Both the position numbers and the translations under genes were made by a program. A DNA stretch of 64,000 nt from Crocinitomicaceae bacterium (GTDB lineage: Bacteria; Bacteroidota; Bacteroidia; Flavobacteriales_D; Crocinitomicaceae), in assembly GCA_044374225.1 (NCBI GenBank), contig JBILOX010000006.1, positions 12,861-76,860 of the forward strand. Reading direction: 5' to 3'. Below the pieces are notes generated by a model. The model had not been told where the DNA came from. It made no database searches and saw nothing but the letters and a program-made list of their open reading frames with translations. Numbering within the stretch: position 1 is the first letter of the stretch; each line of letters opens with the position of its first letter. Below are positions 11,267-33,955 of this stretch, in pieces.

Positions 11267-11974
11267 AGATTGAGGAATCCAGTTTCTGAAAGGAGTTAAA
11301 ATTGTTTGACACGAATTATAAATGTTAGCGAAACAATAATTTGCGAATGAAGAGAAATTTAAATACTTGATTTATTTTTTACTGGTAACGAGTCTACCGA
11401 AGCAGCAAGCAAAAGAACGGCAAAATTATTAATAGCGCAATCTTTATTTTCTTCGAGTTATGAATTAATCCACATTCTTTTTTCGAGGTTCGAAAACCCC
11501 GACTAAATTTTTTTTTACAAAAAGTGTTATAATATAGTTTACTTGTCGTTATTAACAAAAACATTCTTTGACGCACGTTTACAAATCTATTTTTTATTCA
11601 CCCAAATTTAAGAATACCGGTTCGTGTGTTATTTTTTTCTAGCAGTAATAATCGGGTCAATATCCTTTTATTTTGTAAAGTACACTGTAAAAGTCACTTA
11701 AACAAAAGCGAATAAACTTACTAAAGTGCCGTATTAATTTCCTTGGTTACACTAGGAAATAGCGATGCGATAAAAGTATTGTGTGCTGAGCAGGTATCGA
11801 AATTAGATTTGGAGATTGGGTGCGTTATCGTTAATAATTTTAAATTAATAAATCAAGTAAAAATGAACAAGACAGCTTTGAAATGTATTGAAAATCTCTA
11901 CGAAGTCTTAAAAGATTGTGAGATGAATTTGGAAAATGTGGAACAGGAAGATTTAATTTTTCTATCCGATTATA

Positions 11975-12478
11975 TTAACATTTCTGCTGAAGAAACAATT
12001 TTTTAGTACAGTATCTGGTCAAACTGAATAAACCGTATTTAAACCAACTGATTGGCGCCAATGATTGACCCTTATGATGGTTTTTGGTGATGAAAAAACA
12101 TGCGAAATTGAAAATCAGAAAAGGATTCAAGAATAAAAGAAATTCACCAACACTTAAAACTCCAGCGTTCAACATTCCATTTATCGTTGCGACTACAATG
12201 ATAATGAATCCCAATTGACGAACCACTCTAATCCAAAGAGGAAGTCCGCTATTTTTGATTTTCACCACCAATATATTATAGGTAATTAACATCGCAGAAA
12301 TAATCCCATAAAAAACGATGTAAACGTTCTGATAGTTCTCATTAACCCAATCCACATTTTGTATCGAATAATACATTAGGGTTGTCAATAATGCGATAAT
12401 GATTAAAGAAATTAATGAAGTGTTAATTCTTCTCTGTTGATTCATTTCACTTCTTACATTGGCTGTTGTTGCATTCAT
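11975..12478 (-). CDS. Hypothetical multi-pass membrane protein
   Basis: 167-aa ORF with several hydrophobic segments (LISLIIIALLTTLMYY, VYIVFYGIISAMLITYNILVV, LGFIIIVVATINGML, FLLFLNPFLIFNFACFFI). No recognisable family. The 3' end overlaps a weak + strand ORF. Confidence 0.5.
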   Translation of the reverse strand: MNATTANVRSEMNQQRRINTSLISLIIIALLTTLMYYSIQNVDWVNENYQNVYIVFYGIISAMLITYNILVVKIKNSGLPLWIRVVRQLGFIIIVVATINGMLNAGVLSVGEFLLFLNPFLIFNFACFFITKNHHKGQSLAPISWFKYGLFSLTRYCTKKLFLQQKC

Positions 12479-12824
12479 AACTATAGATTTTAGGGTTAAT
12501 AATTAAAGTCAGGTGATTACTAAAAATCACCAATGATTGTAAAGCATGTCGATTAAACTTTTGTCTATCGTGGCAAATTCAGTTATTTCTCATTTAATTC
12601 GTGATACTTTTTTGATTCTTCAGAACACTGAACAAAACAATGGCTATTCGTGAAGTACGTGTCTTACAATAGGCGGGATTTTAAGACAATAATGCTAGAA
12701 ATAGGAATTCGTTACTAATAATGATATTGAAATCCATTTCTCATCATCTTTTTCACCTTCGTAATCGTATTCACATGAATTCCCACAATTCTGGAAATTT
12801 CAGAAGCTTTATTTTTCCTTTGCG

Positions 12825-13739
12825 TTATTTAACAAGTAAATTGGTATAAAACGTATACCCCTGAAAACGCAGAATCCACATAAAATTTGAATTGACTTCT
12901 TTTTGAATAGTTGAGCCCAACAACTGTGTTTTTGTATCGTATATAATTTGAAGATCTTTGGTAAATTTTTCATTTTTGTACGTGTGTTTTTCGATCACAT
13001 TTCCAAACGAATCGTATTTGAAAACCCATTCTTCATAAGGTGCTGCTAACTCACTGTGGTACATTGAAACTCTTGAAAGCAAACCTTTTTCGTTGTAGGC
13101 ATACACTTTTTTATATTCAGAAGAAGCCATTCGCATCCGTTGCGTTGTTTCAATTAAATAACCGTCCGAATTACGTTTTTCAGTTTCTTCTAAATACGGT
13201 AAATTGTAATTGTTGTAAATCACTTTTTTCCAGCCATTTTCTATTGGGAAATAGCGCATTGATTCATTATTAATCAAAAAAGATTGACGTACTTTGCCAG
13301 AGTCACCGAGTACATCCCTCCTATTTTCCACGTAAACTAAACGATTTAAGGAATCGTATCTATAATGAAATGAACTAATTCCACCATATTCACTTTTGCG
13401 ATGCATACTAATTTTCCCTTCGCTTGTGTACTGGTAAAAGTTCATTAAAGTATCGGTCTTCGTGTCAACTGTTTTTGTTTCAAAAGTCGAAATTAAATAC
13501 CCCAAACTATCGAATTTATATTCAAAAATGTCTTTGGTATTTCGAATCATATCGTTGTCTTTTTTGCGTGAATAATTCCCTCTAACTGATTTTATTTTAT
13601 TTACACGAATAAAATTTACATCGAAATAAGGCAAATCGGTGAAGGCATTACCTTCCAAATTATAAATCATTTGCGCACTCGAAAACGAAGCGAAAAGTAA
13701 AAAAACAAACAATAAAAGTTTTTGAGACGTACTTATCAA
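12825..13739 (-). CDS. Secreted hypothetical protein with YD/RHS-repeat-like motifs
   Basis: TTG start 2 nt downstream of the glyQS stop, suggesting an operon. Signal peptide MISTSQKLLLFVFLLFASFSSAQ. Recurrent YD-like motifs are present (FDSLGYLIS, YDSLNRLVYVE, SDGYLIE, YNEKGLLSRV, YDSFGNVIEKH). The last codons and the stop lie inside a solo end of the 105-bp repeat family (tttaacaagtaaattggtata). Confidence 0.7.
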   Translation of the reverse strand: MISTSQKLLLFVFLLFASFSSAQMIYNLEGNAFTDLPYFDVNFIRVNKIKSVRGNYSRKKDNDMIRNTKDIFEYKFDSLGYLISTFETKTVDTKTDTLMNFYQYTSEGKISMHRKSEYGGISSFHYRYDSLNRLVYVENRRDVLGDSGKVRQSFLINNESMRYFPIENGWKKVIYNNYNLPYLEETEKRNSDGYLIETTQRMRMASSEYKKVYAYNEKGLLSRVSMYHSELAAPYEEWVFKYDSFGNVIEKHTYKNEKFTKDLQIIYDTKTQLLGSTIQKEVNSNFMWILRFQGYTFYTNLLVK

Positions 13740-13740
13740 T

Positions 13741-15282
13741 TTATAAACTTACTAAAATGGATTTCCAACTTACTTTTTCTGCAATGATTGTTCCAAGATT
13801 TTCAATTGCCACGCGCTCTTGTTGCATCGTGTCTCTATCGCGAATTGTTACGGTGTTGTCTTCCAAAGTTTGGTGGTCCACTGTTATTGCGAAAGGTGTT
13901 CCAATTGCATCTTGACGACGGTATCTTCTTCCGATTGCGTCTTTTTCGTCGTATTGAACGTTGTAGTCGAATTGTAAATCACGAAGAATTTCACGTGCTT
14001 TTTCTGGCAACCCGTCTTTTTTAATCAATGGTAAAATCGCTGCTTTATAAGGCGCAAGTACTGCTGGAATTTTTAAAACCACACGTTCTGAACCGTCTTC
14101 TAATTTTTCGTTTTGGTAAGCAGCACTCAGCACAGACAAGAACATTCTGTCCAAACCAACAGACGTTTCAACCACATACGGAACGTAACTTTGATTCATT
14201 TCTGGATCGAAGAATTGCAGTTTTTTACCTGAAAATTGCTCGTGTTGTTTCAAATCGAAATCGGTGCGCGAGTGAATTCCTTCCAATTCTTTGAATCCCA
14301 TTGGGAAATTGTACTCGATATCTGCTGCTGCGTTAGCGTAATGTGCCAATTTGATGTGGTCGTGGAAACGGTATAAATTATCACCTAAGCCAAGGTTTTT
14401 ATGCCATTTTGCACGCGCATCTTTCCAGTATTCGTACCATTTCATTTCTTCTCCTGGACGCACAAAAAATTGCATTTCCATTTGTTCAAATTCGCGCATT
14501 CTGAAAATAAACTGTCGCGCAACAATCTCGTTTCTAAACGCTTTTCCGATCTGTGCGATTCCAAAAGGAATTTTCATTCTTCCTGATTTTTGCACATTTA
14601 AGAAGTTCACAAAAATACCTTGAGCTGTTTCTGGGCGCAAATAAATCGTGGAAGCATCACCAGCAACAGAACCCAATTCGGTAGAAAACATCAAGTTGAA
14701 TTGGCGCACTTCTGTCCAGTTTTTAGAACCCGAAACCGGACAAACTATTTCTAAATCGATAATTAAATTACGAACACCATCCAAATCATTGTTTTCCAAC
14801 GCGGTGCGCATTCTATTTTCGATTTCTTCGATTTTCAAGAGGTTTCTCAATACGTTTGGATTCGTTGCCCGGAATTGAGCCTCGTCAAACGATTCACCAA
14901 ATTTCTTGATGCCTTTTTCAACCTCTTTCTCAATTTTCTGACGGATTTTCTCCATGTGTTCTTCCAATAGAACATCTGCGCGGTATCTTTTTTTAGAATC
15001 TTTGTTATCAATCAATGGGTCGTTGAACGCATCCACGTGACCTGAAGCTTTCCAAGTGGTTGGGTGCATAAAAATCGCTGCGTCAATTCCCACAATGTTT
15101 TCGTGCATTTGCACCATGGATTTCCACCAATACGTTTTGATATTATTTTTCAATTCGGAGCCCAACTGACCGTAGTCATAAGTGGCAGCCAATCCGTCGT
15201 AAATTTCTGATGAAGGAAAAACGAAACCATACTCTTTCGCATGGGAAATAATGTCTTTTAATTTGTCTTGATTTTGTTCCAT
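13741..15282 (-). CDS. glyQS: Glycine--tRNA ligase (homodimeric class II GlyRS)
   Basis: 513 aa. The N-terminus KDIISHAKEYGFVFPSSEIYDGLAATYDYGQLGSELKNNIKTYWW and the overall length and layout are typical of bacterial alpha2 GlyRS. Confidence 0.95.
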   Translation of the reverse strand: MEQNQDKLKDIISHAKEYGFVFPSSEIYDGLAATYDYGQLGSELKNNIKTYWWKSMVQMHENIVGIDAAIFMHPTTWKASGHVDAFNDPLIDNKDSKKRYRADVLLEEHMEKIRQKIEKEVEKGIKKFGESFDEAQFRATNPNVLRNLLKIEEIENRMRTALENNDLDGVRNLIIDLEIVCPVSGSKNWTEVRQFNLMFSTELGSVAGDASTIYLRPETAQGIFVNFLNVQKSGRMKIPFGIAQIGKAFRNEIVARQFIFRMREFEQMEMQFFVRPGEEMKWYEYWKDARAKWHKNLGLGDNLYRFHDHIKLAHYANAAADIEYNFPMGFKELEGIHSRTDFDLKQHEQFSGKKLQFFDPEMNQSYVPYVVETSVGLDRMFLSVLSAAYQNEKLEDGSERVVLKIPAVLAPYKAAILPLIKKDGLPEKAREILRDLQFDYNVQYDEKDAIGRRYRRQDAIGTPFAITVDHQTLEDNTVTIRDRDTMQQERVAIENLGTIIAEKVSWKSILVSL

Positions 15283-15286
15283 GCTG

Positions 15287-15294
15287 CAAAGATA
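15287..15294 (-). promoter_or_regulatory. Candidate Bacteroidetes -7 box (TAnnTTTG) for glyQS
   Basis: The plus strand reads CAAAGATA, which is TATCTTTG on the minus strand. It lies only 4 nt upstream of the glyQS ATG, implying a leaderless or near-leaderless mRNA. Confidence 0.45.
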
Positions 15295-15389
15295 AGCTAG
15301 ATATTAGAAGTGATTATGTGCAAGCGGAAACAATTTCAACATCGAAGTATTGAAAGTGGGAATTAGACTTGTATTTTTCAAATCTTTAT

Positions 15390-15397
15390 TACATTTG
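15390..15397 (+). promoter_or_regulatory. Candidate -7 box (TACATTTG) for the cyclase-like gene
   Basis: Matches TAnnTTTG and lies 4 nt upstream of the ATG at 15402. Confidence 0.45.
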
Positions 15398-15401
15398 ATT
15401 T

Positions 15402-16163
15402 ATGCGACTATATCTGAACGAAAAAGAATACATTGAAACGAATGAACCTTTGGATCTTTCCATTGGTTTGCAAGCAGGAGAAGGAAATTTAAGAGCTTGG
15501 TATGTGAATCCTCCAACTTTTGAACCTGTTCGTGCTAATGGTTTTATTGGAAGCGTAAAAGAGGGTGGTGGTGTAAACTTTCGCGATGTGTTTTTTAACC
15601 CACACGGACATGGTACGCATACAGAATGCCATGGTCACATTACACCTGAAGTTGTTTCCGTTAATCAAAAGTTACGCTCGTATTTTTTTAAAGCAAGAGT
15701 GGTTTCCGTTCAACCAGAAATTTTGGAAAATGGTGATGAATTAATAACAAAAAATCTGTTCGCGGAAAAAATTGACGATTCACCCTTCGAAGCTTTGATT
15801 ATTCGAACACTTCAAAATTCGTTTGATAAAACTTCCAAAAATTATTCTGACACCAATCCACCTTATTTGGACTTATCCGTTATGGAAATTATTGAAAAGC
15901 ATGATATTCAACATTTATTAGTCGATATGCCTTCTGTTGACAGGGAATCTGATGAGGGTAAATTGGCCTTTCACCACGCATTTTGGAATGTTCCCGAAAA
16001 TCCGAATGACAAAACGATCACTGAATTGATTTATGTTAAAGATGAAATCATAGATGGGTTATACATTTTAGAAATGCAAATGGCTCCTTTTGAGAATGAT
16101 GCGAGTCCTAGTCGCCCTGTTCTTTACAAAATACAGGGTAGGGAAAAGTTCCGCAGGATTTGA
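15402..16163 (+). CDS. Putative cyclase / arylformamidase-family protein
   Basis: 253 aa. The motif HGHGTHTECHGH resembles the HxGTHxDxPxH metal-binding signature of the putative cyclase (kynurenine formamidase-like) family. The last six codons and the TGA stop (EKFRRI*) are supplied by the palindromic repeat at 16145. Confidence 0.65.
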   Translation: MRLYLNEKEYIETNEPLDLSIGLQAGEGNLRAWYVNPPTFEPVRANGFIGSVKEGGGVNFRDVFFNPHGHGTHTECHGHITPEVVSVNQKLRSYFFKARVVSVQPEILENGDELITKNLFAEKIDDSPFEALIIRTLQNSFDKTSKNYSDTNPPYLDLSVMEIIEKHDIQHLLVDMPSVDRESDEGKLAFHHAFWNVPENPNDKTITELIYVKDEIIDGLYILEMQMAPFENDASPSRPVLYKIQGREKFRRI

Positions 16164-16197
16164 AAGTTCTGCAGGATTTGAAATCCTGCGGAACTTT
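16145..16197 (+). repeat. Palindromic junction repeat, copy 1 (one extra left half-site plus a ~29-35-nt palindrome followed by a T-run)
   Basis: aaagttccgcaggatttga / aagttctgcaggatttgaaatcctgcggaactttttt. Same family as the copies at 21725, 23257 and 24819. The stem plus T6 resembles an intrinsic terminator. Confidence 0.9.
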
Positions 16198-17370: not shown

Positions 17371-17425
17371 GACTTACTGCTGATTTCAGTAAGAGCGAAA
17401 CCCGAAAAGCTGGAGAGTAAGGGGG
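17371..17425 (+). repeat. Conserved 55-nt leader motif, copy 1 (possible cis-regulatory RNA)
   Basis: gacttactgctgatttcagtaagagcgaaacccgaaaagctggagagtaaggggg, about 90% identical to 27760-27815. It contains the hairpin cttactg/cagtaag and a second gtaag that could pair alternatively. It ends 25 nt upstream of the ATG at 17450. Confidence 0.7.
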
Positions 17426-17449: not shown

Positions 17450-18001
17450 ATGCTGGAAATTTTACGAATTGCAATTAAGAATATTAACGAAAAATATTTT
17501 TTCAGAAAGGAACGTGATTTTTCTCACGAATTATACCATCAAATACGATTACAAAAGCTACCACTTGATACAGAAGTAACTTGCGAACATCCCAAAAGAA
17601 GATTCTCACATAGTGATACAATTTTTGAAGATCCGCTAGTTAAGCGTTATTTCTTCGCTGATGAAATCGATGAAGCAAAAAAGATTTTTCGATATCCAGA
17701 CTTGCTGATTCATGAGTTTGAAAATAGAACCCAACAATTGCTGGCGGTTGAAATAAAAAAACAATTTAATGTATCCCAAATTAAACGGGATTTGGCGAAA
17801 CTTATAGTTTATTGCAGAGGGCGCTTGAGATACAAAAACGGGGTGTTAATTATTACTCAACAAGCAAATACCAGACGAATAATTGAAGTGCGCGACATTA
17901 GAGAAATGCTTAGGAAATATCCCGAAGTAGAAATTTGGACGGTTTGTCCTGAAAGAATTGATGTTTATAATTCAATAACTATTAATAACCAAAATCAATA
18001 A
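17450..18001 (+). CDS. Hypothetical protein with PD-(D/E)xK nuclease-like motifs
   Basis: 183 aa. FRYPDLLIHEF ... LLAVEIKKQF gives D-(x17)-E-x-K with plausible beta-strand context, and an upstream acidic helix is present (FSHELYHQI). The stop lies 3 nt before the next start codon. Confidence 0.6.
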   Translation: MLEILRIAIKNINEKYFFRKERDFSHELYHQIRLQKLPLDTEVTCEHPKRRFSHSDTIFEDPLVKRYFFADEIDEAKKIFRYPDLLIHEFENRTQQLLAVEIKKQFNVSQIKRDLAKLIVYCRGRLRYKNGVLIITQQANTRRIIEVRDIREMLRKYPEVEIWTVCPERIDVYNSITINNQNQ

Positions 18002-18003
18002 CA

Positions 18004-21000
18004 ATGAAAAAAATAATTTTATTATTATTTACTGGAATATGTCTAATTTCTTTCGGTCAGCAGTTTAAAGCGGATTTAACTTTTAACACTGGAATTGGTT
18101 TTGACCAAGGTGTGACAGACATAATAACACAACAAGACGGAAAAATAATTGTTGGAGGAAGGTTTGAATTATATGGAATGAATACAACGTATACTAGACG
18201 TATAGCACGTTTGAATTCAAATGGTTCACTTGATAATACATTCAATACTGGATCTGGATTTAACAATGACGTAACATCTTTAGCCATTCAGACTGATGGT
18301 AAGATAGTTGTTGGAGGTGAGTTTTCATCTTTCAATGGAATAGCAAGAAATCGTATTGCACGTTTGAATAATGACGGATCACTTGATACCACGTTCAATC
18401 CGGGTTCAGGATTTTTTAACGGATTTGATTTCTGTAGTGTCTATTCTATTAGTATTCAGTCTGACGATAAGTTAATTGTTGGAGGTGGGTTTTCTTCTTT
18501 CAATGGGGTATCAAGAAAATGTATTGCACGTTTGAATAATGACGGTTCCCTTGATGCCACGTTCAATCCGGGTTCAGGATTTTTTAACCAATTTGATTTC
18601 TGTAATGTCTCTTCTACTAGTATTCAGTTTGATGGTAAGTTAATTGTTGGAGGTGGGTTTTCATCTTTCAATGGTATAGGAAGAAATAATATCTTACGTT
18701 TGAATAGTGATGGTTCACTGGATAATACATTCAATCCTGGTAGTGGATTTGATACAGAGGTGAGTTCCACTGCAATACAGTCTGATGGAAAATTAATTGT
18801 TGGAGGTGGGTTTACGTCATTCAACGGAATATCAAGAAACGGCATTACGCGATTGAATTCTGATGGATCAATAGACAATTCTTTTAATATTGGTTCTGGT
18901 TGCAGTGGATCAATACCTTCGGTTTTATCTTTAGCAATTCAGACAGATGGAAAGATTTTAATAGGTGGCTTATTTACATCATTCAATGGAATTAATATTA
19001 AAAGTATTGCAAGATTAAATATTAATGGAACTCTAGATAATTCATTCAATACAGGGACAGGCTTTATTGATTCAAATAACGGTCCTGGTTTTATTTCATC
19101 AATTTTAACATTATCTGATGATAAATTTGTTGCTACTGGTGAATATTCTAGTTTTAATGGAGTTAATAGAAATAAAATTTCAAGAATAATTGATTGTAGT
19201 TCTAATTCATCAAATAATATAGCAAATGTCACGGTTTGCGATTTAACAGTTATCCAAATTGGAAATCAAAATTATGCCACATCGAATAGCTATACATGGC
19301 CATTAAATGGAGAAACCTATTATGAGACTGGTCAATACAATACAAATATTACAATTAATTCTGTTGGATGTGATTCTGTCAATACACTAGACTTAAATTT
19401 TCATCAAAATTGGCGAGAAACTTCAATATTAGCCTGTTATTTAGATACTTTTTATATTGATGGATATGGTTATATTTCAAATCAGTCTGGATATTTCTTT
19501 GCTTATTCAAATCAACCGGCATTATACGGTTGTGACTCTTTGGTTATATATGATTTAACCTCAATTTCGCCTATTTATAACTCCTTTAATGTATCTATTT
19601 GTCCCGGTTCAAGTTATACTTGGAATGGTCAGCAGTATAATTCGGATGGTCAATTCCAACAAACTTTTTCAAGTTTAATAACTGGTTGTGATAGTATTGT
19701 AACTTTGAATCTTTCATATATCTTACCAGTTTATACATCATTTAACGTATCAATATGTCCTAGCTCAAGTTATATTTGGAATGGCCAACAATATAATTCA
19801 CCTGGGCAATATCAGCAATCTTTTTCAAGTTTCCTAACAGGTTGTGATAGTATTTCAACATTGAATCTTTCTTTTGTACCAAATAATTTCAACCCAACCT
19901 TCTCAAGCGCTCAACAATTGTACACTGCTCCTCCATTTGCTGTGCAGTTTACCAATTCAACGGCCAATCCTTCCAATTATTCATTTACATGGGATTTCGG
20001 AGATGGTACAACATTGGCATCTAACAATGCAACGGTTTTTCATCAGTATTTGTACAATGGACAATATACACTTTCATTGATTGCTACTAGCAACACAACA
20101 GGTTGTTCCGATACTACTACTCTTTCTGATTATATTTTCTGTACGGGTGGTGTGAGTTGTACGCATGTAGCAACAATTAATCAAACGAGTCCACAACAAG
20201 CGTGTCAAGGAACACCACTTTGGTTGTCGTGTAATAACGATCCTTCATTTACATACCAATGGAGAAGAAATGGTGTAACTATTCCAGGAAATAACAACGA
20301 CAGTTTGGCTGTAACACAATCAGGCACTTATTCTGTAATAATTTCGGTAAACAATTGTCCAATTACTTCAGGAGATGTGGTGGTAACAATTTTTTCTGCT
20401 CCATCAACTCCGATTATTACTTCTTCAGGAGCAATTCAACCATGTGTGGGAGGTTCGGTTACTTTGAATGCCGGAAGTTACACTACTTACAACTGGTCAA
20501 CAGGAGCAACAACACAAAGTATCAATGTTAACTCTTCAGGAACTTACTCGGTTTCTGTAACTGGAGCTAATGGTTGTTCGGCTTCTTCTACTCCATTTAA
20601 TGTAAATGCTTCTTTTGTTGCGCCTCCACAAGTTTGTATCGTTGGAATGGATTCATTAACAAACGAAAACAGAATCGTTTGGGAAAAACCGTTGACTTTG
20701 GGTATTGATTCATTCTACGTTTATAAAGAAAGTAATGTATCCAATGTTTACACAAAAATCGGCGCAACAGATTACAATCAATTAGCAGTTTTCTTAGATG
20801 CTAATTCAAATCCTGCTGTTCAAGCCTATCGTTATAAAATCTCAGCTTTAGATACATGTGGAACTGAATCAAACGTTGGAGATTTTCACAAAACCATACA
20901 CTTAACTATTAACCAAGGAGTTGGGAATTCTTGGAATTTAATTTGGAGTCATTATGAAGGTTTAACTTTTGGAAGTTATAGAATTTACAGGGGAACGAGC

Positions 21001-21432
21001 TTATCAAATATGGCTCTTTTGACAACTATCCAAAGTAATTTGAATTCATATACAGATTTAACTCCACCAACTGGACCAGTATTTTACCAAATTGAGGTTG
21101 TAAATCCTAATAATTGTGATCCAACTAAAATAATGAATTATGGTCTTTCAAAGTCTAATATTGTAGATAATGGAGTAAGTGGAATAAGTGAGGAAGTATT
21201 GTCAACAATAAATGTTTATCCGAACCCAACCAATGATAAATTTACTCTGAATGTTTCAAACGATTTGTTAGGAAAAGGATATGTAATCACTGATTTTTCT
21301 GGAAGAATAATTTCTCAAGGAAAAATTAATTCATTGATTCAAACCATAGATGTTCAGGAAATTTCTAAAGGTGCGTATTTCTTACAAATTGATAAATCAA
21401 CTACAAAAGCAATTAAAATTATCAAACAATAA
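18004..21432 (+). CDS. Large secreted multidomain protein: beta-propeller-type ~60-aa repeats, PKD domain, Ig/Fn3-like region, T9SS type A C-terminal sorting domain
   Basis: Signal peptide MKKIILLLFTGICLISFG. About 7 repeats of DGSLDxxFNxGSGF...IQxDGKxxVGGxFxSFNGxxRNxIxRLN (delta-60 / DUF5122-like). Two near-identical ~52-aa CxxSSYxWNGQQYNS...GCDSxxTLNLS repeats. PKD motif WDFGDGT. The C-terminus INVYPNPTNDKFTLNV...GAYFLQI...IKIIKQ is typical of Por/T9SS type A CTDs. Confidence 0.9.
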   Translation: MKKIILLLFTGICLISFGQQFKADLTFNTGIGFDQGVTDIITQQDGKIIVGGRFELYGMNTTYTRRIARLNSNGSLDNTFNTGSGFNNDVTSLAIQTDGKIVVGGEFSSFNGIARNRIARLNNDGSLDTTFNPGSGFFNGFDFCSVYSISIQSDDKLIVGGGFSSFNGVSRKCIARLNNDGSLDATFNPGSGFFNQFDFCNVSSTSIQFDGKLIVGGGFSSFNGIGRNNILRLNSDGSLDNTFNPGSGFDTEVSSTAIQSDGKLIVGGGFTSFNGISRNGITRLNSDGSIDNSFNIGSGCSGSIPSVLSLAIQTDGKILIGGLFTSFNGINIKSIARLNINGTLDNSFNTGTGFIDSNNGPGFISSILTLSDDKFVATGEYSSFNGVNRNKISRIIDCSSNSSNNIANVTVCDLTVIQIGNQNYATSNSYTWPLNGETYYETGQYNTNITINSVGCDSVNTLDLNFHQNWRETSILACYLDTFYIDGYGYISNQSGYFFAYSNQPALYGCDSLVIYDLTSISPIYNSFNVSICPGSSYTWNGQQYNSDGQFQQTFSSLITGCDSIVTLNLSYILPVYTSFNVSICPSSSYIWNGQQYNSPGQYQQSFSSFLTGCDSISTLNLSFVPNNFNPTFSSAQQLYTAPPFAVQFTNSTANPSNYSFTWDFGDGTTLASNNATVFHQYLYNGQYTLSLIATSNTTGCSDTTTLSDYIFCTGGVSCTHVATINQTSPQQACQGTPLWLSCNNDPSFTYQWRRNGVTIPGNNNDSLAVTQSGTYSVIISVNNCPITSGDVVVTIFSAPSTPIITSSGAIQPCVGGSVTLNAGSYTTYNWSTGATTQSINVNSSGTYSVSVTGANGCSASSTPFNVNASFVAPPQVCIVGMDSLTNENRIVWEKPLTLGIDSFYVYKESNVSNVYTKIGATDYNQLAVFLDANSNPAVQAYRYKISALDTCGTESNVGDFHKTIHLTINQGVGNSWNLIWSHYEGLTFGSYRIYRGTSLSNMALLTTIQSNLNSYTDLTPPTGPVFYQIEVVNPNNCDPTKIMNYGLSKSNIVDNGVSGISEEVLSTINVYPNPTNDKFTLNVSNDLLGKGYVITDFSGRIISQGKINSLIQTIDVQEISKGAYFLQIDKSTTKAIKIIKQ

Positions 21433-21456: not shown

Positions 21457-21491
21457 AAATCCCATCAGCTTCGGTTGGTGGGATTTTTTTT
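21457..21491 (+). terminator. Intrinsic terminator (13-bp stem, UUCG loop, T-run) after the 1142-aa gene
   Basis: aaatcccatcagc-ttcg-gttggtgggattt followed by T8. This is the first part of the ~230-bp 3'-flank module. Confidence 0.75.
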
Positions 21492-21567
21492 ATATTGTTT
21501 TTTGAGAAATTTCAGATTATTTCAAAAACCTAGACCCCAATCAAAAAACAATTTCGATTATATAATG

Positions 21568-21684
21568 GATAAATGGTTTAAACCATTTTTTATATGTATT
21601 CATTTCATCATAGGGGAGGTTTTAAAACCTCCCCTATGATAAATCACCAAATAATTCAATAACCATTTCAATGGTTTGAGGTTG
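21568..21684 (+). repeat. Hairpin module, copy 1
   Basis: taaatggtttaaaccatt palindrome, then a perfect 17-bp-arm palindrome atcataggggaggtttt/aaaacctcccctatgat (21607-21640), then aaccatttcaatggtttgaggttg. The flanks are homologous to 23388-23505. Confidence 0.9.
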
Positions 21685-21724
21685 TTCATTTAATTCGTGC
21701 CAACGAAATACAGTTTCGGTTAAT

Positions 21725-21807
21725 AAAGTTCCGCAGGATTTGAAACGTAAAGTTCCGCAGGATTTCAAATGTAAAGTTCCGCAGGATTTGAAATCCTGCG
21801 GAACTTT
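21725..21807 (+). repeat. Palindromic junction repeat, copy 2 (two 24-bp left half-site units plus a 35-nt perfect palindrome)
   Basis: aaagttccgcaggatttgaaacgt | aaagttccgcaggatttcaaatgt | aaagttccgcaggattt-g-aaatcctgcggaacttt. Confidence 0.95.
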
Positions 21808-21829
21808 ACTGAAATCACAAAATAAATGT

Positions 21830-21837
21830 TATATTTG
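21830..21837 (+). promoter_or_regulatory. Candidate -7 box (TATATTTG) for the ATPase gene
   Basis: Matches TAnnTTTG. It lies 23 nt after the palindrome and 30 nt upstream of the ATG at 21868. Confidence 0.45.
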
Positions 21838-21867
21838 TGTAAATAATCACATTTTACATACTTATAT

Positions 21868-23178
21868 ATGGAAAGAGACCTACAACTTCAATTAATTAAA
21901 TGGAAAAACAAAACCGAGAGGTTACCATTAATTCTTCAAGGAGCGAGACAAGTTGGTAAAACCTATCTTATGCGTTGGTTTGGAGAAAATGCCTTTTCAC
22001 AATTTATTTACTTCAACTTTGACGAACGTCCAGAGTTAAAAGATTTTTTTCAAAAAAATAAAGATATACATCGAATCCTTGAGTCGTTTTCGCTTATCAG
22101 TGGTAAAGAAATAAATAGCGAAACATTGATAATTTTAGATGAAATCCAAGAATGTCCAGAGGCTTTGAATACCTTGAAATATTTTGCAGAACAAAAACCT
22201 GAAATTCCAATTATATGTGCTGGCTCACTTTTGGGTATATTGTTAAATTCAGGTAATTCTTTTCCTGTTGGGAAGGTTGAGTTTTTAACGCTTTATCCAA
22301 TGACATTTCGAGAAGTATTACCTAATTGGAGTAATTCTTTATCGAAGTATGTAGAGCAATTAGATGCACTAACTCCCATTCCTGACTATTTTTTTAATGA
22401 TTTATTACATCATTTCAAAAAATACATGATTACAGGAGGAATGCCGGCAATTGTTAAATCCTTTAACGACTCGAATACATTTGAAAATACAGACGAAACC
22501 TTAAACAATCTTATTCTTTCGTACAAAGGTGATTTTGCGAAACATCCAATTATGACAAACGTTGCTAAAATTGGCGAAGTGTTTAATTCGTTGCCCGCAC
22601 AACTTGCGAGAAAAAACAAAAAATTCATTTATCAATTAATTCGAACGGGAGCAAGAGCAAGAGAATATGAAGATGCAATTCAATGGTTGATAAATGCAGG
22701 ATTAGTATATCAAGTGAAATTAAATACAAAGCCATCATTACCACTAAGCGCTTATGAAGATCAAAGTGCATTTAAATTATATGCTTTAGACGTGGGAATT
22801 ATAAGAAACTTAGCTAAACTTTCACCAAGTGTTTTTTTAGAAGGAAATCGCCTTTTTTCTGAGTTTAAAGGTGCGTTGATAGAAAATTACATCCTACAAA
22901 GTTTGGTTGCTCAATTAAAAACTCCTCCTAGATATTGGACATCTGGAAATACTGCTGAAATTGACTTTTTAATTCAAATTGAAAATGAAATTATTCCAAT
23001 CGAAGTGAAGAGCGATGAAAATGTTAAAAGTAGAAGTCTCTCGTTATATAATGAAAAGTTTAATCCTTCATTAAGAATACGGTATTCATTGAAAAATTTA
23101 CAATATAGAGATGGCTTGTTGAATATTCCTCTTTTTCTAGCAGATTACACCATAGAAATGATTCGACGGGTTAAATAG
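21868..23178 (+). CDS. AAA+ ATPase with C-terminal DUF4143 / restriction-endonuclease-like domain
   Basis: 436 aa. Walker A is GARQVGKT and Walker B is LIILDEIQ. The C-terminal AEIDFLIQIENEIIPIEVKSDENVKS is typical of the AAA_14 + DUF4143 family. Confidence 0.85.
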   Translation: MERDLQLQLIKWKNKTERLPLILQGARQVGKTYLMRWFGENAFSQFIYFNFDERPELKDFFQKNKDIHRILESFSLISGKEINSETLIILDEIQECPEALNTLKYFAEQKPEIPIICAGSLLGILLNSGNSFPVGKVEFLTLYPMTFREVLPNWSNSLSKYVEQLDALTPIPDYFFNDLLHHFKKYMITGGMPAIVKSFNDSNTFENTDETLNNLILSYKGDFAKHPIMTNVAKIGEVFNSLPAQLARKNKKFIYQLIRTGARAREYEDAIQWLINAGLVYQVKLNTKPSLPLSAYEDQSAFKLYALDVGIIRNLAKLSPSVFLEGNRLFSEFKGALIENYILQSLVAQLKTPPRYWTSGNTAEIDFLIQIENEIIPIEVKSDENVKSRSLSLYNEKFNPSLRIRYSLKNLQYRDGLLNIPLFLADYTIEMIRRVK

Positions 23179-23256
23179 AAAATGAGCAAATGGTTTTTAA
23201 CGATTAAATTGACAGACAAAATAAAGGATTCAGGTAAGAAAAATTCTATTGAAATT

Positions 23257-23307
23257 AAAGTTCAGCAGGATTTGAAATCCTGCGGAACTTTCAAATCCTG
23301 CGGAACT
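23257..23307 (+). repeat. Palindromic junction repeat, copy 3 (palindrome followed by an extra right half-site, so inverted polarity relative to the other copies)
   Basis: aaagttcagcaggatttgaaatcctgcggaacttt + caaatcctgcggaact. Confidence 0.9.
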
Positions 23308-23337
23308 CCCGTTCGCTTCGGTTGGTGGGATTTTTTT
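23307..23337 (+). terminator. Degenerate copy of the UUCG-loop terminator hairpin
   Basis: tcccgttcgc-ttcg-gttggtggga followed by T7. Homologous to 21457-21491 but with more G-U pairs and mismatches. Confidence 0.4.
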
Positions 23338-23387: not shown

Positions 23388-23505
23388 GGGTAAATGGTTA
23401 AAACCATTTTATGTACGTGTGGTTTTCTCCTTAGGGTCGGATTTAAATCCGACCCTAAGGAGAAACACCAAAAAATTCATCAACCATTTCAATGGTTTGA
23501 GATTG
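23388..23505 (+). repeat. Hairpin module, copy 2
   Basis: taaatggttaaaaccatt, then a perfect 20-bp-arm palindrome ttctccttagggtcggattt/aaatccgaccctaaggagaa (23425-23464), then aaccatttcaatggtttgagattg. Same architecture as copy 1, but the central hairpin has a different sequence. Confidence 0.9.
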
Positions 23506-23667: not shown

Positions 23668-24174
23668 ATGTTGCCTGAAATTTCAAAGATAAAAGGAATT
23701 CATCCTGGAGCTATTTTAAAAAGAGAACTCAAAAATCAAAGCCTGAAAAGTAGTGAATTAGCCAAATCAGTTAATGAACACAAGCAAACTATCAGTGCAA
23801 TTCTCAATGAAAAAAGAAGTGTTAATCCTGGACTTTCAATCAAACTGGCAAAACATTTCGGAGTAGCATCGGATTACTTTATGCATGTTCAAGCCAGTTA
23901 TGATATCCAAATAGAATTACAAAAAGACGCTGAAAAAAGTACCCCAGACCTCAAGAAGATACGGAAAATAGTATTTTGGGATACTGATTTCAACCTATTG
24001 GATTGGGAAAAACAAAAATCTGCTATTATCAAGCGTATCTTCGAAAGGGGAAATGATACAGAGATTAAGGAGATTATTTCTTTTTATGGACTTTCAACTG
24101 TGAAACAAACAATTGATGCTACTAAAAATAATTTTCTTCCTGCTTTCAATGAAAATGTAAAAAAGTACTTATAG
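23668..24174 (+). CDS. HigA-type XRE-HTH antitoxin-like protein fused to a C-terminal domain of unknown function
   Basis: The N-terminus IHPGAILKRELKNQSLKSSELAKSVNEHKQTISAILNEKRSVNPGLSIKLAKHFG is typical of HigA addiction-module antidotes. The C-terminal ~80 aa (IVFWDTDFNLLDWEKQKSAIIKRIFERGNDTEIKEIISFYG) is an extra domain. Confidence 0.75.
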   Translation: MLPEISKIKGIHPGAILKRELKNQSLKSSELAKSVNEHKQTISAILNEKRSVNPGLSIKLAKHFGVASDYFMHVQASYDIQIELQKDAEKSTPDLKKIRKIVFWDTDFNLLDWEKQKSAIIKRIFERGNDTEIKEIISFYGLSTVKQTIDATKNNFLPAFNENVKKYL

Positions 24175-24189
24175 ATAATACAGCATAAA

Positions 24190-24837
24190 TTGAATACACT
24201 TCACAGAAATACCGTTTCAGAATCGCTTTGGGTTTCATTAAATAAACTCATGAAAATTGAAGAATTAAAGAGTTTTCGATTGGTTGGTGGTACTTCTTTA
24301 AGTTTGCAAATTGGACACAGAATGTCCGTCGATATTGATTTGTTTACTGATGCACCTTATGATTCTATCGATTTCGACCGAATTGATGAAGTGATATGTT
24401 CAACCTTTCCAACAGTTGAAATGGGATATGGAGGAAATCACTCTATGGGTAAATCTTACTTTGTAGGAACATCAAAGGAAGACCTCGTCAAATTAGATTT
24501 TTTTTACACAGATTCATTTGTCTTTCCAGTACTTATTGAGCAGGATATTCGATTTGCAAGATTAGAAGAAATTGCGGCAATGAAACTAGAAGTGATAGGT
24601 AACAATGGAAGAAAAAAAGACTTTTGGGACCTTCATGAATTAATGGATCATTTTTCTCTAAATCAAATGATTGAATTTTATGAAAAACGCTATCCGTATA
24701 GCCTTACGAAAAAAGAAATAATATCCCAACTTACCTTTTTTGATAATGCAGACGAAGATTTTGATCCAATTTGCCTTCGTAATAAATATTGGGAGTTGAT
24801 AAAATTAGATTTTGAGGAAAAGTTCCGAAGGATTTGA
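24190..24837 (+). CDS. Nucleotidyltransferase, AbiEii/AbiGii toxin-like (DUF1814) family
   Basis: TTG start. FRLVGGTSLSLQIGHRMSVDIDLFTD matches the GGTAL...HR.S.DIDLF NTase signature of AbiEii-like proteins. The N-terminal LHRNTV segment argues for the TTG start rather than the internal ATG. The last six codons and the stop (EKFRRI*) come from the junction repeat. Confidence 0.75.
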   Translation: MNTLHRNTVSESLWVSLNKLMKIEELKSFRLVGGTSLSLQIGHRMSVDIDLFTDAPYDSIDFDRIDEVICSTFPTVEMGYGGNHSMGKSYFVGTSKEDLVKLDFFYTDSFVFPVLIEQDIRFARLEEIAAMKLEVIGNNGRKKDFWDLHELMDHFSLNQMIEFYEKRYPYSLTKKEIISQLTFFDNADEDFDPICLRNKYWELIKLDFEEKFRRI

Positions 24838-24925
24838 AACGCAAAGTTCCGAAGGATTTGAAACGCAAAGTTCAGCAGGATTTGAAACGTAAAGTTCCGC
24901 AGGATTTGAAATCCTGCGGAACTTT
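24819..24925 (+). repeat. Palindromic junction repeat, copy 4 (three 24-bp left half-site units plus a 35-nt perfect palindrome)
   Basis: aaagttccgaaggatttgaaacgc x2 | aaagttcagcaggatttgaaacgt | aaagttccgcaggattt-g-aaatcctgcggaacttt. Confidence 0.95.
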
Positions 24926-25039: not shown

Positions 25040-27388
25040 ATGCGAAGTTGGTTTCTTTTGTTTCTGTTTTTAATTGTTTCAGCTGGTTTCGCAACTGCCA
25101 CTGTTTCTGAGAAATTGTTTCTTACAAAGAAAAGTGAACTTACCTTTTTGATAAATAGAGGTAGCTTGAATACTGCACTTTTGAAATGCGAAAAGCTTTT
25201 AGCTAGTAATTTAAGTAAGGATCAGCGTTATCAAATTTTAACCACTCAATCTAAGATTTATTTTTGGACAGAAAATTTATATGAATTTAATAGGACAGCA
25301 AAATCGGCTTATGAAATAAAAAAGAAAAATTTGGCAATTTACAAAGCGTATTATTATTCGCAGAAAGCAGCATTTTTTCATTATCATATTTTAGCTGATT
25401 CTGCTGTCTACTATTCTGACAAATCAATAGAACTACTTAGTAAAAACTGGCAATTTCGAACAAAAGTACCTTTTCATTTTATTTATCAAATTTATGGAAC
25501 GGTTTTTCTTTATAGAAATATAAATGGAAAATTTTATTCAAACTCTGAATTTGATTGCAATAATAGATTACCCTTGATTTTAAACTATCAGGATTCTGCT
25601 TTAAAGCATATCAATCAAGTCCCGCATTTTAAACAGGAGGAAGCAATTATACATCGATCAAAAGGAAATCGGATAATGGATCTTGTAGGTTATAGTGTTC
25701 GTAACAGCAAATCGGATTTTAATAATTATGCTTTTCAGATAAGTAAAGCAAACCAAGCAATTAATGAATATCGAATGGCTTTAAAGGTTTTAGACAAAAA
25801 TGAACATACCTTATCAAATGGAATCAAAAGTTTAATTGCTTTGGCTTTTTATTGTACAAATAGAGAGCATGAAGGGGATGCGATTTTGTGGCCAATTATT
25901 AAGAAGTTGAAGAAAGATAAAATAAAGGATATAAATTCGGAGAATATCCAATTATTGAATGTCCTGCAAACATTTTCTCACAGCATTATTTCTAAAAATA
26001 AATTTGATTCAAGAATCTATTCCGTTATCCGAATTTATAAATCCCTACGTGATGATTGGTATTGGTATTTAATTTCAAAAAACAAAAATTACCTCGATTC
26101 ATACGGAGAATCTCCTACATCCATGCTTTCCATTATCTATATTTGGCTCAACAATTTAGAAATTGAAAATTTAAATTTAAATTATAATTTGAGGTACAGT
26201 GCACTCGATAATTACATTTATTATAGTAAAACCTTAGATTTTCTTGTTAACAAAAATGGTCTTTCATTATCAAAAAAAGTGGAGATAAAAGCTTCAATCT
26301 TAACACTTCTTAATCTTTATAAAATCCAAAAGAAACTTAGTGAAAAAGATGCGGTAATGGTTCAGATTTTTGCAGCAATGAAAAAAGAGAAATATCTCTT
26401 AATTACAAAAAAAGCGCTTTATGTAGATACTTTTAAAAGACTACCATTAACACATTATACAAGTTTACAAATTGATGGATTAACGGAATTTAAAAGAAAA
26501 GGATTTGAAAATTTTTCAAGTTCTCCATTTTGCTATATTTTAAAAAAAAATAAAATTTCAAAGCTGTATGTAGCAATTGATATTCATGAAAATTTTGATT
26601 TGATGATTATGGACACATTAGGTGATTCATTTGAAGAATTAAACTATTTTAAAAGTAAAATTAATGTTATTAAAGTATATAATCCAATTGATTTTTTTTC
26701 AATATATCCTTCAACTGATTTACTAATTAAAGAAAACATAGCTCCATTTTATACTGACATTAATAGTAAAGATAGATTGCCTTTTTCACAATCGATTTTT
26801 ACTAATTTCAATAGAAAAAGAATAAAACCTTTACGATTTATAAATTTAAATGATAACGGAATAGCTCATATTATTGGTCACGGAAATTTGAAATTGGAAA
26901 AAGACAGACAATCTTATACCAACTATTTGCAATCAAATCAATTGAAAAAAGATTTAATAGGAAACCAGCGAATTAAAACTGACTTATTTATTTTAAATTT
27001 ATGTTTTGGTGCATACAAAAGAAGTATGTTTTATCCAGATCGTGATTTACAAAATCAACTAATTTCTAAAGGTGCTAAAGCTGTAATTGCCTCACCTTAC
27101 CAAACTATAGATCAAAGTTCAGCCTATATTTTTGAAAAATTTTATCACTATCTTTTCAAAGGAGAAACAGTAGAAGATGCATTACAGCTAGCAAAATTAG
27201 ACTATTTAAAAACGCATACAGGAATGGAGGCTCATCCACAATATTGGTCAACCTACGAACTTACCTCCAACGTCAAAGACCTACGTTTAGCCCTTGATCC
27301 AATACCAGATAAATCGTGGCAAGCGTATTTAGTGCTATTAGTTTTGATTGCAATAGTGTTGTGGTTTTATTTGTATTGGGAGGATTGA
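25040..27388 (+). CDS. CHAT-domain (caspase-like) protease with N-terminal signal peptide, helical-repeat region and C-terminal TM anchor
   Basis: 782 aa. Signal-like MRSWFLLFLFLIVSAGFATA. CHAT His/Cys dyad context GIAHIIGHGN ... TDLFILNLCFGAY, followed by GAKAVIASPYQTIDQSSAYIFEKFYHYLFKGETVEDALQLAKLDYLK. C-terminal hydrophobic WQAYLVLLVLIAIVLWFYLYW. Confidence 0.8.
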   Translation: MRSWFLLFLFLIVSAGFATATVSEKLFLTKKSELTFLINRGSLNTALLKCEKLLASNLSKDQRYQILTTQSKIYFWTENLYEFNRTAKSAYEIKKKNLAIYKAYYYSQKAAFFHYHILADSAVYYSDKSIELLSKNWQFRTKVPFHFIYQIYGTVFLYRNINGKFYSNSEFDCNNRLPLILNYQDSALKHINQVPHFKQEEAIIHRSKGNRIMDLVGYSVRNSKSDFNNYAFQISKANQAINEYRMALKVLDKNEHTLSNGIKSLIALAFYCTNREHEGDAILWPIIKKLKKDKIKDINSENIQLLNVLQTFSHSIISKNKFDSRIYSVIRIYKSLRDDWYWYLISKNKNYLDSYGESPTSMLSIIYIWLNNLEIENLNLNYNLRYSALDNYIYYSKTLDFLVNKNGLSLSKKVEIKASILTLLNLYKIQKKLSEKDAVMVQIFAAMKKEKYLLITKKALYVDTFKRLPLTHYTSLQIDGLTEFKRKGFENFSSSPFCYILKKNKISKLYVAIDIHENFDLMIMDTLGDSFEELNYFKSKINVIKVYNPIDFFSIYPSTDLLIKENIAPFYTDINSKDRLPFSQSIFTNFNRKRIKPLRFINLNDNGIAHIIGHGNLKLEKDRQSYTNYLQSNQLKKDLIGNQRIKTDLFILNLCFGAYKRSMFYPDRDLQNQLISKGAKAVIASPYQTIDQSSAYIFEKFYHYLFKGETVEDALQLAKLDYLKTHTGMEAHPQYWSTYELTSNVKDLRLALDPIPDKSWQAYLVLLVLIAIVLWFYLYWED

Positions 27389-28896: not shown

Positions 28897-28972
28897 TTTT
28901 CAAATAGCTTAAGTTAAAAAATAGAGTATACCGAAAATCTTTAAGAGTAGGTAAAATATCAAAAATGAAAAA

Positions 28973-33862: not shown

Positions 33863-33955
33863 GGATTACTGATTGCGGATTACTGATTGCGGATTACTGA
33901 TTGCAAATTGATTTTTTTTAATCTGCAATCTGTAATTTTCCAATCTGCAATCTAA
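33863..33955. terminator. Low-complexity tandem/inverted repeat between convergent genes (probable bidirectional terminator)
   Basis: ggattactgattgc x3, then gattgcaaattgattttttttaatctgcaatc, which forms an inverted repeat, plus further aatctgcaatc copies. Confidence 0.55.

Follow-up and report, generated by a model that had tools for sequence, protein, structure and literature searches.

A 35-nt palindrome at the joints of gene modules in a defence-island-like region of a Crocinitomicaceae genome

Gene content of the locus

The DNA analysed is a stretch of 64,000 nt from a Crocinitomicaceae bacterium (assembly GCA_044374225.1, contig JBILOX010000006.1, positions 12,861 to 76,860 of the forward strand); it is referred to below as the window and all coordinates are counted from its first letter unless another locus is named. 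At four sites (A–D) it carries a 35-nt palindrome, P, with the sequence AAAGTTCCGCAGGATTT-N-AAATCCTGCGGAACTTT, of which the 17-nt sequence AAAGTTCCGCAGGATTT is termed the arm. Comparison with ~45 related loci (designated by L and a number) showed that rearrangement, gain, loss and horizontal replacement of gene modules between genomes, as read from the aligned sequences, appear to fall exactly at P. That the palindromes serve as joints for gene-module exchange is the main point of this analysis and had been missed in a first-pass annotation of the window.

The window has a GC content of ~33% and is Flavobacteriales-like. P is confined to a 9-kb stretch of its 64 kb, in which all genes lie on the + strand. 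The first gene is open reading frame (ORF) 15402-16163, a kynurenine formamidase (Pfam Cyclase). It is followed by site A, a 160-aa double helix-turn-helix (HTH) protein, a 183-aa protein and a 1,142-aa protein sorted by the type IX secretion system (T9SS; 18004-21432) with an intrinsic terminator of its own, termed T (hairpin plus T-run, 21457..21486, + strand). The S element (21549..21722, + strand) then leads directly into site B. The ATPase cassette (21808..23256, + strand, 1,449 bp, bounded by P on both sides in four genomes) encodes an AAA_14/DUF4143 ATPase (21868-23178, + strand) that PADLOC assigns to the candidate single-gene defence system PDC-S01 (3e-165). Beyond site C lie a truncated second copy of S (S', 23388..23504, + strand, S positions 23-138) and a toxin–antitoxin module (23668..24837, + strand) composed of a HigA-like HTH_3/DUF6922 protein (23668-24174) and an AbiEii nucleotidyltransferase (24190-24837); site D and a CHAT protein gene (25040-27388) complete the series. 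The other ORFs of the window that were scanned against Pfam belonged to housekeeping families (ilv genes, thyA, holA, truA and others) or gave no match. The presence of PDC-S01, HigA/AbiEii and CHAT here, and of MNT/HepT, Fic and DUF1016 in relatives, gives the region the look of a small defence island.

S, a block of ~180 nt found beside many P sites, is a relic of the coding end of a T9SS C-terminal domain. It contains a perfect palindrome of its own, P2 (21604-21643), which recurs in the truncated copy (23424-23465); in all of the relatives examined, the HigA/AbiEii module is preceded by this same truncated form. P2 occurs in two mutually compensated versions, ATCATAGGGGAGGTTTT/AAAACCTCCCCTATGAT and TCTCCTTAGGGTCGGATTT/AAATCCGACCCTAAGGAGA. 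A short GGATTT/AAATCC motif is common to P2, P and the local terminators, a possible resemblance. S was considered as a structured RNA partner of P and rejected, its 3' half being the T9SS coding relic.

Architecture of sites A–D

The arm was matched 15 times in the window with at most two mismatches, always at sites A–D; shuffled sequences gave a mean of 0.35 matches and none of 100 shuffles reached 17. Site A (16145..16197) bounds the island on the left and takes in the final codons of the formamidase gene. It consists of two left arms with a period of 18 (arm plus G), the second having T at position 8, followed by a right arm, and is the same in four independent contigs of the same strain (L037-L040) except for the consensus C in one of them. 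Site B (21725..21807) joins S to the ATPase cassette and is composed of two 24-nt units and a perfect 35-nt palindrome; it is identical in L020. Site C (23257..23309) is a palindrome whose left arm has A at position 8, followed by one extra right arm with a period of 18. Site D (24819..24925) joins the AbiEii module to the CHAT gene and contains three 24-nt units (AAAGTTCCGAAGGATTTGAAACGC twice and AAAGTTCAGCAGGATTTGAAACGT once) before the perfect palindrome AAAGTTCCGCAGGATTT-G-AAATCCTGCGGAACTTT; Tandem Repeats Finder describes it as 3.9 copies of period 24 with 94% matches. The centre-proximal arm pairs of sites A and C have one mismatch each.

The first-pass annotation had described site D as a 24-bp tandem array ending in a perfect 35-nt palindrome, which both the sequence and Tandem Repeats Finder confirm, and the extra right arm that it placed after the palindrome at site C is likewise present in the sequence. 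Its statement that the 24-bp repeat occurs one, two or three times before the palindrome holds at sites B and D and fails at site A, where the period is 18; the repeat units, described there as alike, differ from one another.

The arm variant with A at position 8 (AAAGTTCAGCAGG) is found at 23257-23273 (left arm of site C) and at 24867-24883 (third unit of site D). These two copies flank the segment T'-S'-HigA/AbiEii, which may therefore have been inserted with duplication of an arm.

Module joints in related loci

All of the comparison sequences are metagenome assemblies, in which further arrays were reached through protein relatives. Across the ~45 loci the same flanks are paired in different combinations, with homology ending at the array's outer edge. 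The window has the order S-P-ATPase-P-T'-S'-HigA/AbiEii-P-CHAT and L006 has HigA/AbiEii-P-ATPase-P-CHAT-Fic. In the metagenome-assembled genome (MAG) JBILHL01, where L009 and L001 are contiguous, the order is LptD-like-P-HTH160-191aa-S-P-[348-aa cassette]-P-ATPase-P-CHAT-Fic. L012 and L017 read T9SS-S-P-CHAT, the cassette being absent, L026 and L029 read T9SS-S'-HigA/AbiEii-scar-CHAT, L025 reads T9SS-ATPase401-DUF1016 and L032 reads T9SS-DUF1016-ATPase401. The ATPase is joined through P to S in the window, L047, L046 and JBILHL01 and to AbiEii in L006; on its other side ATPase-P-CHAT occurs in L006 and JBILHL01. The extra P-bounded 348-aa cassette is present in both JBILHL01 and L003, and the housekeeping neighbour of the island varies by genome, being a formamidase gene, an LptD-like gene or Peptidase_S51.

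The ATPase cassette measures 1,449-1,450 bp between arrays in four genomes, and the copy in the window is 96.3% identical to that of JBILHL01, 94.7% to that of L047 and 92.3% to that of L006. Identity between the window and JBILHL01 amounts to 82% across 4.4 kb of housekeeping genes and to 65-72% for CHAT; when the two are compared in 60-nt windows it rises to 0.9-1.0 at site B and drops at site C. This jump in identity at P on both sides points to horizontal replacement of the P-bounded ATPase cassette.

Other joints lie off P, at terminator T for the DUF1016 cassette and at S position 138 for the HigA/AbiEii module, and these joints at T or inside S point to general recombination among intergenic repeats. 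Members of the terminator T family adjoin P in several loci. L045, a more distant relative, has the order T9SS-ATPase-DUF1016 without any P; the absence of P from the same gene order suggests that P was added to existing intergenic spaces.

At 7975-8075 of L025 (and also in L027 and L028) P is followed by the first ~100 nt of the 436-aa ATPase cassette, including the start codon. This stub breaks off into a terminator remnant and is what is left of a decayed cassette at the P joint.

Gene ends encoded by the repeat

ORFs 15402-16163 and 24190-24837 both end in EKFRRI-TGA, with these codons inside the first arm. This had been noted in the first-pass annotation, which further claimed that the repeat had replaced the native termini of both genes and proposed comparison of orthologue C-termini as the test; the comparison supports it, EKFRRI being non-native in the formamidase and in AbiEii alike. 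More than 50 kynurenine formamidase orthologues (85-92% identity) end in ...VLYKIQKK(G)-stop, while the protein of the window ends in ...VLYKIQGREKFRRI-stop, its chimeric tail GREKFRRI-stop (16137..16163, + strand) standing in place of the native KK(G)-stop. L034, a relative without the island, keeps glycyl-tRNA synthetase and formamidase; its DNA homology is lost at window position 16120, 25 nt before the repeat, and its formamidase gene ends with a stop and a terminator of its own, the genes beyond being unrelated.

In AbiEii the repeat-encoded tail KFRRI-stop (24820..24837, + strand) takes the place of a native tail of ~7 residues. Homologues at 60-87% identity end in ...LDFEE(R/K)VQKEFN-stop, and an EEK(F/I/L)RRI or EEKFRR end is found only in a clade of at least 92% identity. 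L041 has an 86%-identical AbiEii with the native tail and a P-like array ~60 nt past the stop, before the same CHAT gene; the fused tail would therefore have arisen by a deletion of ~85 nt onto an array that was already present.

The 3' half of S translates to ...NGLRFVHLISAQGNIISVSKV|PQDLK (...ISVSKV|PQDLK), and intact T9SS genes end in ...NGLYFVHLIDAQGNTVTVRNIVLQ-stop (...TVTVRNIVLQ-stop). P thus took the place of the final few codons of a T9SS gene, which decayed afterwards. The comparisons show the last codons of three different genes (formamidase, AbiEii and the T9SS relic) to have been replaced by P. In L019 a stop codon and the first bases of P overlap, and in L001 the stop of the LptD-like gene is followed 2 nt later by an array.

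Turnover of the arm arrays

The AbiEii-CHAT joint has three extra units in the window and also three in L021-23 (periods 23, 23 and 24), where the first is mutated and gives EKIRRI. L032 and L033 have no extra unit, the stop lying in the loop and a canonical terminator following, and only the scar AAAATTCCGCAGGTAAAGTT is left in L024-L031. Across relatives there are 0 to 4 extra arms on the left, the right or both sides, with periods of 14, 16, 18, 19, 23, 24 and 26 nt; every unit begins anew at AAAGTT and breaks off 13-21 nt into the palindrome. Arrays in mirror image (++--) are present in L001, L006 and L009, and at 3505-3598 of L001 a +++--- array forms a nested palindrome, with inner variant arms AAGTTTCGCAGGGT and ACCCTGCGAAACTT that mirror each other exactly. 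Between contigs of the same strain (L020, L037-L040) the copy number is constant and a single nucleotide polymorphism is seen.

The copy-number variation predicted by the first-pass annotation is therefore found between related genomes, with 0, 1 or 3 extra arms at the same junction. The companion idea, that amplification of one arm is a designed feature providing competing structures or iterons, finds no support, since number, period and side all vary and arrays occur as mirror images. Turnover this rapid and unconstrained is what one would expect of a mutational by-product more than of a binding array with a fixed number of sites.

Among 27 distinct core sites 16 have the perfect consensus, nine have one to three uncompensated mismatches and two are compensated. 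The compensated variants are GTTGCGC/GCGCAAC in all three arms of L047 and the outer pair at position 3536 of L001; the L047 arms fit selection for pairing or templated correction between arms and not a mirrored protein half-site. The base at the centre of P (G, C, A or T) was rejected as a polarity marker, as it varies even between orthologous joints.

Distribution

In a search of 185,579 species genomes, seven of 18 matching stretches look real. Real arm matches come from one Crocinitomicaceae MAG (JBILHL01) and two closely related MAGs labelled 'Chitinophaga pinensis', and degenerate copies of the arm from one Lishizhenia MAG and one Bacteroidota MAG. The whole representative MAG JBILHL01 has ~5 P sites. 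The exact palindrome was found in only two contigs of a metagenome scan; viral contigs gave no match to P, and plasmid and phage collections gave no real match to S plus P. From the few real matches it follows that P is rare and is restricted to a narrow lineage of freshwater, Crocinitomicaceae-like Flavobacteriales.

No recombinase or transposase was found by Pfam among 29 ORFs of the window, nor near P in the gene tables of ~25 related contigs. The sole integrase seen is in L043, beside a distant AbiEii homologue and without P.

Interpretation

We think it somewhat more probable than the reverse that P is a lineage-restricted junction element which forms hairpins or cruciforms and acts as a hot spot of recombination, the arm arrays and chimeric tails being by-products. 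Exchange would then be ordinary recombination stimulated by a short perfect palindrome: a hairpin would form during replication and lead to stalling or cleavage, and repair with another copy of P or with incoming DNA would follow, P supplying the shared homology for the swap or import of a cassette. Extra arms would come from slipped realignment and template switching at the hairpin, and the EKFRRI tails from deletions ending at its foot. P may in addition serve as an orientation-independent 3' stem-loop that insulates the cassettes, and the half-site arrays would have no function of their own.

In the genetics of palindromes in E. coli deletions end at the hairpin foot, duplications arise by slipped realignment and templated correction perfects imperfect palindromes. 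The truncated gene ends, arms of variable period, mirror-image arrays and compensated variants described here match these effects, which are laboratory mutational phenomena and not a named genomic element. Neisserial intergenic mosaic elements (NIMEs, with dRS3 repeats) and minimal mobile elements are mosaics of intergenic repeat blocks that act as substrates for recombination and cassette replacement between strains (PMC1797815). The intergenic regions around P resemble NIMEs in being built of recurring repeat blocks that would serve recombination between strains; they differ in sequence and host phylum, and P is a long perfect palindrome with arm arrays. The dRS3 repeat is 20 bp in length, has short terminal inverted repeats and is a target of phage integration.

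Several points weigh against the hairpin-driven explanation. The data are metagenome assemblies only, and repeats can produce chimeric joins; most arrangements recur in independent samples (L020; L037-40; L021-23; L025/27/28; L026/29/30; L047 for the right side of L006), but the left junction of L006 and the order in JBILHL01 are single observations on single contigs. What we infer about hairpin cleavage, slippage and any RNA role draws on general knowledge of palindrome instability. The sequence of P, and not only its structure, is conserved across genomes ~18% apart in their housekeeping genes, which a site recognized by a sequence-specific protein would also be expected to show. A length of 35-107 bp is short for efficient RecA-dependent exchange, and the clean P-to-P limits of a 96%-identical cassette are what a site-specific system would give. 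Finally, a 26-nt unit in L041 is the homologue of the 24-nt unit, so that some arrays persist over appreciable divergence.

The main rival explanation, which we consider doubtful, is that P forms the core of the site used by a dedicated site-specific recombination system whose enzyme is encoded elsewhere in the genome. The site might, for example, be read as a 7-nt spacer between two 11-bp arms GTTCCGCAGGA, in which case extra arms would be accessory binding sites, as is the third arm in the native Flp recombinase target (FRT). Cassettes would be excised as circles with one P and re-inserted at another P, as a counterpart in Bacteroidota of integron cassettes or of the pdif modules of Acinetobacter. 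Such a system would account for the discrete 1,449-bp P-bounded cassette in four genomes and several contexts, the swapped cassette order of the window versus L006, the resemblance of L012 and L017 to an empty site with a single P, the strict conservation of P and the cargo of toxin–antitoxin and defence genes, as found in chromosomal integrons. Extra right arms also travel with the downstream ATPase cassette in L006, L046 and L047. Against this, neither the 64-kb window nor the related P-bearing loci (~45) encode a tyrosine, serine, HUH or DDE enzyme. Moreover, other modules are joined at terminator T or within S, arrays alter by local duplication while both flanks remain unchanged, and compensated variants hit both arms at once, which half-site exchange does not predict. 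A related and equally tentative proposal, to which we give little credence, is that P marks an undescribed chromosomal cassette exchange of Bacteroidota in which an unlinked recombinase or structure-specific nuclease would excise and re-insert defence and toxin–antitoxin cassettes and move them between species. It would be analogous in function to integrons or pdif modules but with a site type of its own, the extra arms being accessory binding sites or scars of recombination.

Two known site-specific systems bear directly on this question. pdif modules are discrete units, often carrying toxin–antitoxin or accessory genes, that are bounded by short inverted-repeat sites and shuffled across contexts with no recombinase gene in or beside them (PMC6449649, PMC13141974). 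The P-bounded modules likewise occur in different order and context without a recombinase gene nearby. The pdif site, in contrast, is 28 bp in length with distinct 11-nt XerC and XerD arms and a 6-bp spacer, and is found on plasmids, whereas P is chromosomal, with identical 17-nt arms, a single central base and tandem arm copies. P was therefore rejected as a dif-type site, since its arms are identical and its odd length forces an odd spacer (1, 3, 5 or 7 nt). Integrons resemble the island in having cassettes in one direction, each followed by a palindromic site, with toxin–antitoxin and defence cargo, and in an order and content that vary between relatives. Clusters of attC sites lacking integron-integrases (CALINs) are cassette arrays with no adjacent integrase, and the P cluster is alike in this respect. 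However, several P modules are multi-gene units with their own promoters and terminators. attC sites are imperfectly paired, with extrahelical bases, and are 57-141 nt long, while P has 35 nt and a perfect 17-bp stem without a bulge. When tested against the attC motif R''(RYYYAAC)...R'(GTTRRRY), P gave GTTCCGC...GCGGAAC, in the opposite order, and fits one of three R and one of three Y positions. Neither the window nor the gene tables for related loci with P contained a Phage_integrase match that could represent IntI. P was accordingly rejected as attC (wrong motif order, no bulges, too short, no IntI), and the absence of attC features also speaks against a dedicated system.

A role at the RNA level is improbable. 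P would here be a 3' stem-loop that terminates or stabilizes cassette transcripts, with competing left arms tuning expression or translation termination upstream, for instance of the AbiEii toxin with its stop in the repeat. The position of P fits, being no further than 80 nt from the 3' ends of at least six different genes, as does the stop codon of the L032 toxin in the loop; repetitive extragenic palindromic (REP) elements are known to supply stop codons and to sit downstream of genes (PMC3733652). The predicted hairpins are strong (-18 kcal/mol for P as DNA, z-score -9.5), pairing is preserved by compensating changes, and in the RNA folds of sites A and B the centroid pairing departs from that of minimum energy. 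Yet the terminator scan calls none of the four P sites, and a T-run after the stem is seen by eye only at site A and is absent at the other three; P as a standard intrinsic terminator was rejected at three of the four sites on these grounds. In several loci a canonical terminator stands directly beside P, arm number and spacing vary at orthologous positions, and variation is mostly uncompensated while the sequence itself is conserved. A permissive Rfam scan of 15-31 kb gave chance microRNA-type matches on palindromes and no known family for P or S.

It is very unlikely that the arms are iteron-like sites for the 160-aa double-HTH protein or the HigA-like antitoxin, to which binding is putative. 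In favour are the strict conservation of the arm sequence, the fit of a palindrome to a dimeric binder and the HTH gene, which is always at the left end of the island and is conserved near the left-most P in the window, JBILHL01 (L001), L003, L025, L026 and L029. Arms of 17 bp with a 1-nt gap are, however, unusually long for an operator, and the sites lie downstream of genes and not at promoters. A mirrored compensating change would weaken a sequence-specific site in both halves, and the variation in arm number, spacing and side between relatives argues against an iteron or operator array.

Least probable of all is a REP-like or miniature inverted-repeat transposable element (MITE)-like origin, with spread by a REP-associated tyrosine transposase (RAYT) of the IS200/IS605-like type. 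REPs are short palindromic extragenic repeats past genes that occur singly, as dimers or in arrays and can supply stops; they are dispersed in tens to hundreds of copies and are imperfect palindromes with a GTAG or CGTC tag (PMC3733652). P resembles them as a ~35-nt palindromic extragenic repeat with dimers and arrays that overlaps stop codons, and its absence from the same gene order in L045 agrees with addition to existing intergenic spaces; nevertheless P was rejected as a REP/RAYT element on defining features, being present in a handful of copies in one island (four sites within 9 kb of the 64-kb window, ~5 in MAG JBILHL01, few real matches in genome, metagenome, viral, plasmid and phage data), perfect without the REP-type bulge and untagged (its flanks differ between sites, with GTAG only near site A, 5 nt upstream), and no RAYT was found in the window or the loci examined. 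A CRISPR array was rejected because the units abut, the 0-7 nt between them belong to the palindrome and there are no spacers.

If exchange from P to P is real, a small chromosomal island of uncultured freshwater Flavobacteriales would reshuffle and import single defence cassettes, such as the PDC-S01 ATPase and AbiE-like toxin–antitoxin modules, without visible mobile-element machinery. P would then be a compact DNA signal for finding cassettes in Bacteroidota, in which integrons are rare. The locus is also an instance from nature in which short perfect palindromes have altered the 3' ends of genes, three different proteins having received repeat-encoded tails. A dedicated enzyme, if it exists, would define a new site-specific system; otherwise the island would be a clean case of repeat-guided modular evolution of defence genes.

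Additional observations

The 183-aa ORF beside the HTH gene (17450-18001) has by eye a PD...ExK-like motif (YPDLLIHE...AVEIKK); searches of Pfam, PADLOC and NCBIfam gave no match to it and a PDB search no significant one. Its position is held in relatives by different small genes (172, 149 and 191 aa). A PDB sequence search with the 160-aa HTH protein also gave no significant match. The gene of the T9SS-sorted protein contains tandem repeats at 18286-18741 (168 nt x 2.7) and 19574-19871 (156 nt x 1.9), and the T9SS genes at that position differ completely in size across relatives (448-1,142 aa).

The Rfam motif DUF805b RNA was matched at 28921-28953 (35.4 bits; gathering score 35.6) and at 17392-17423 (25.1 bits); the second match lies between the 160-aa HTH and 183-aa genes in a stretch that is conserved in relatives. 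The GC skew changes sign at ~10000-16000, with the cumulative minimum near 14-16 kb. Skew is negative in the giant + strand ORF 146-11266 (3,706 aa) and positive in later + strand genes; a switch linked to replication or a peculiarity in the composition of the giant gene could underlie the change. At 33863-33953, between convergent genes, a perfect triple tandem repeat of 14 nt (GGATTACTGATTGC) is followed by a T-run and AATCTGC-type repeats.

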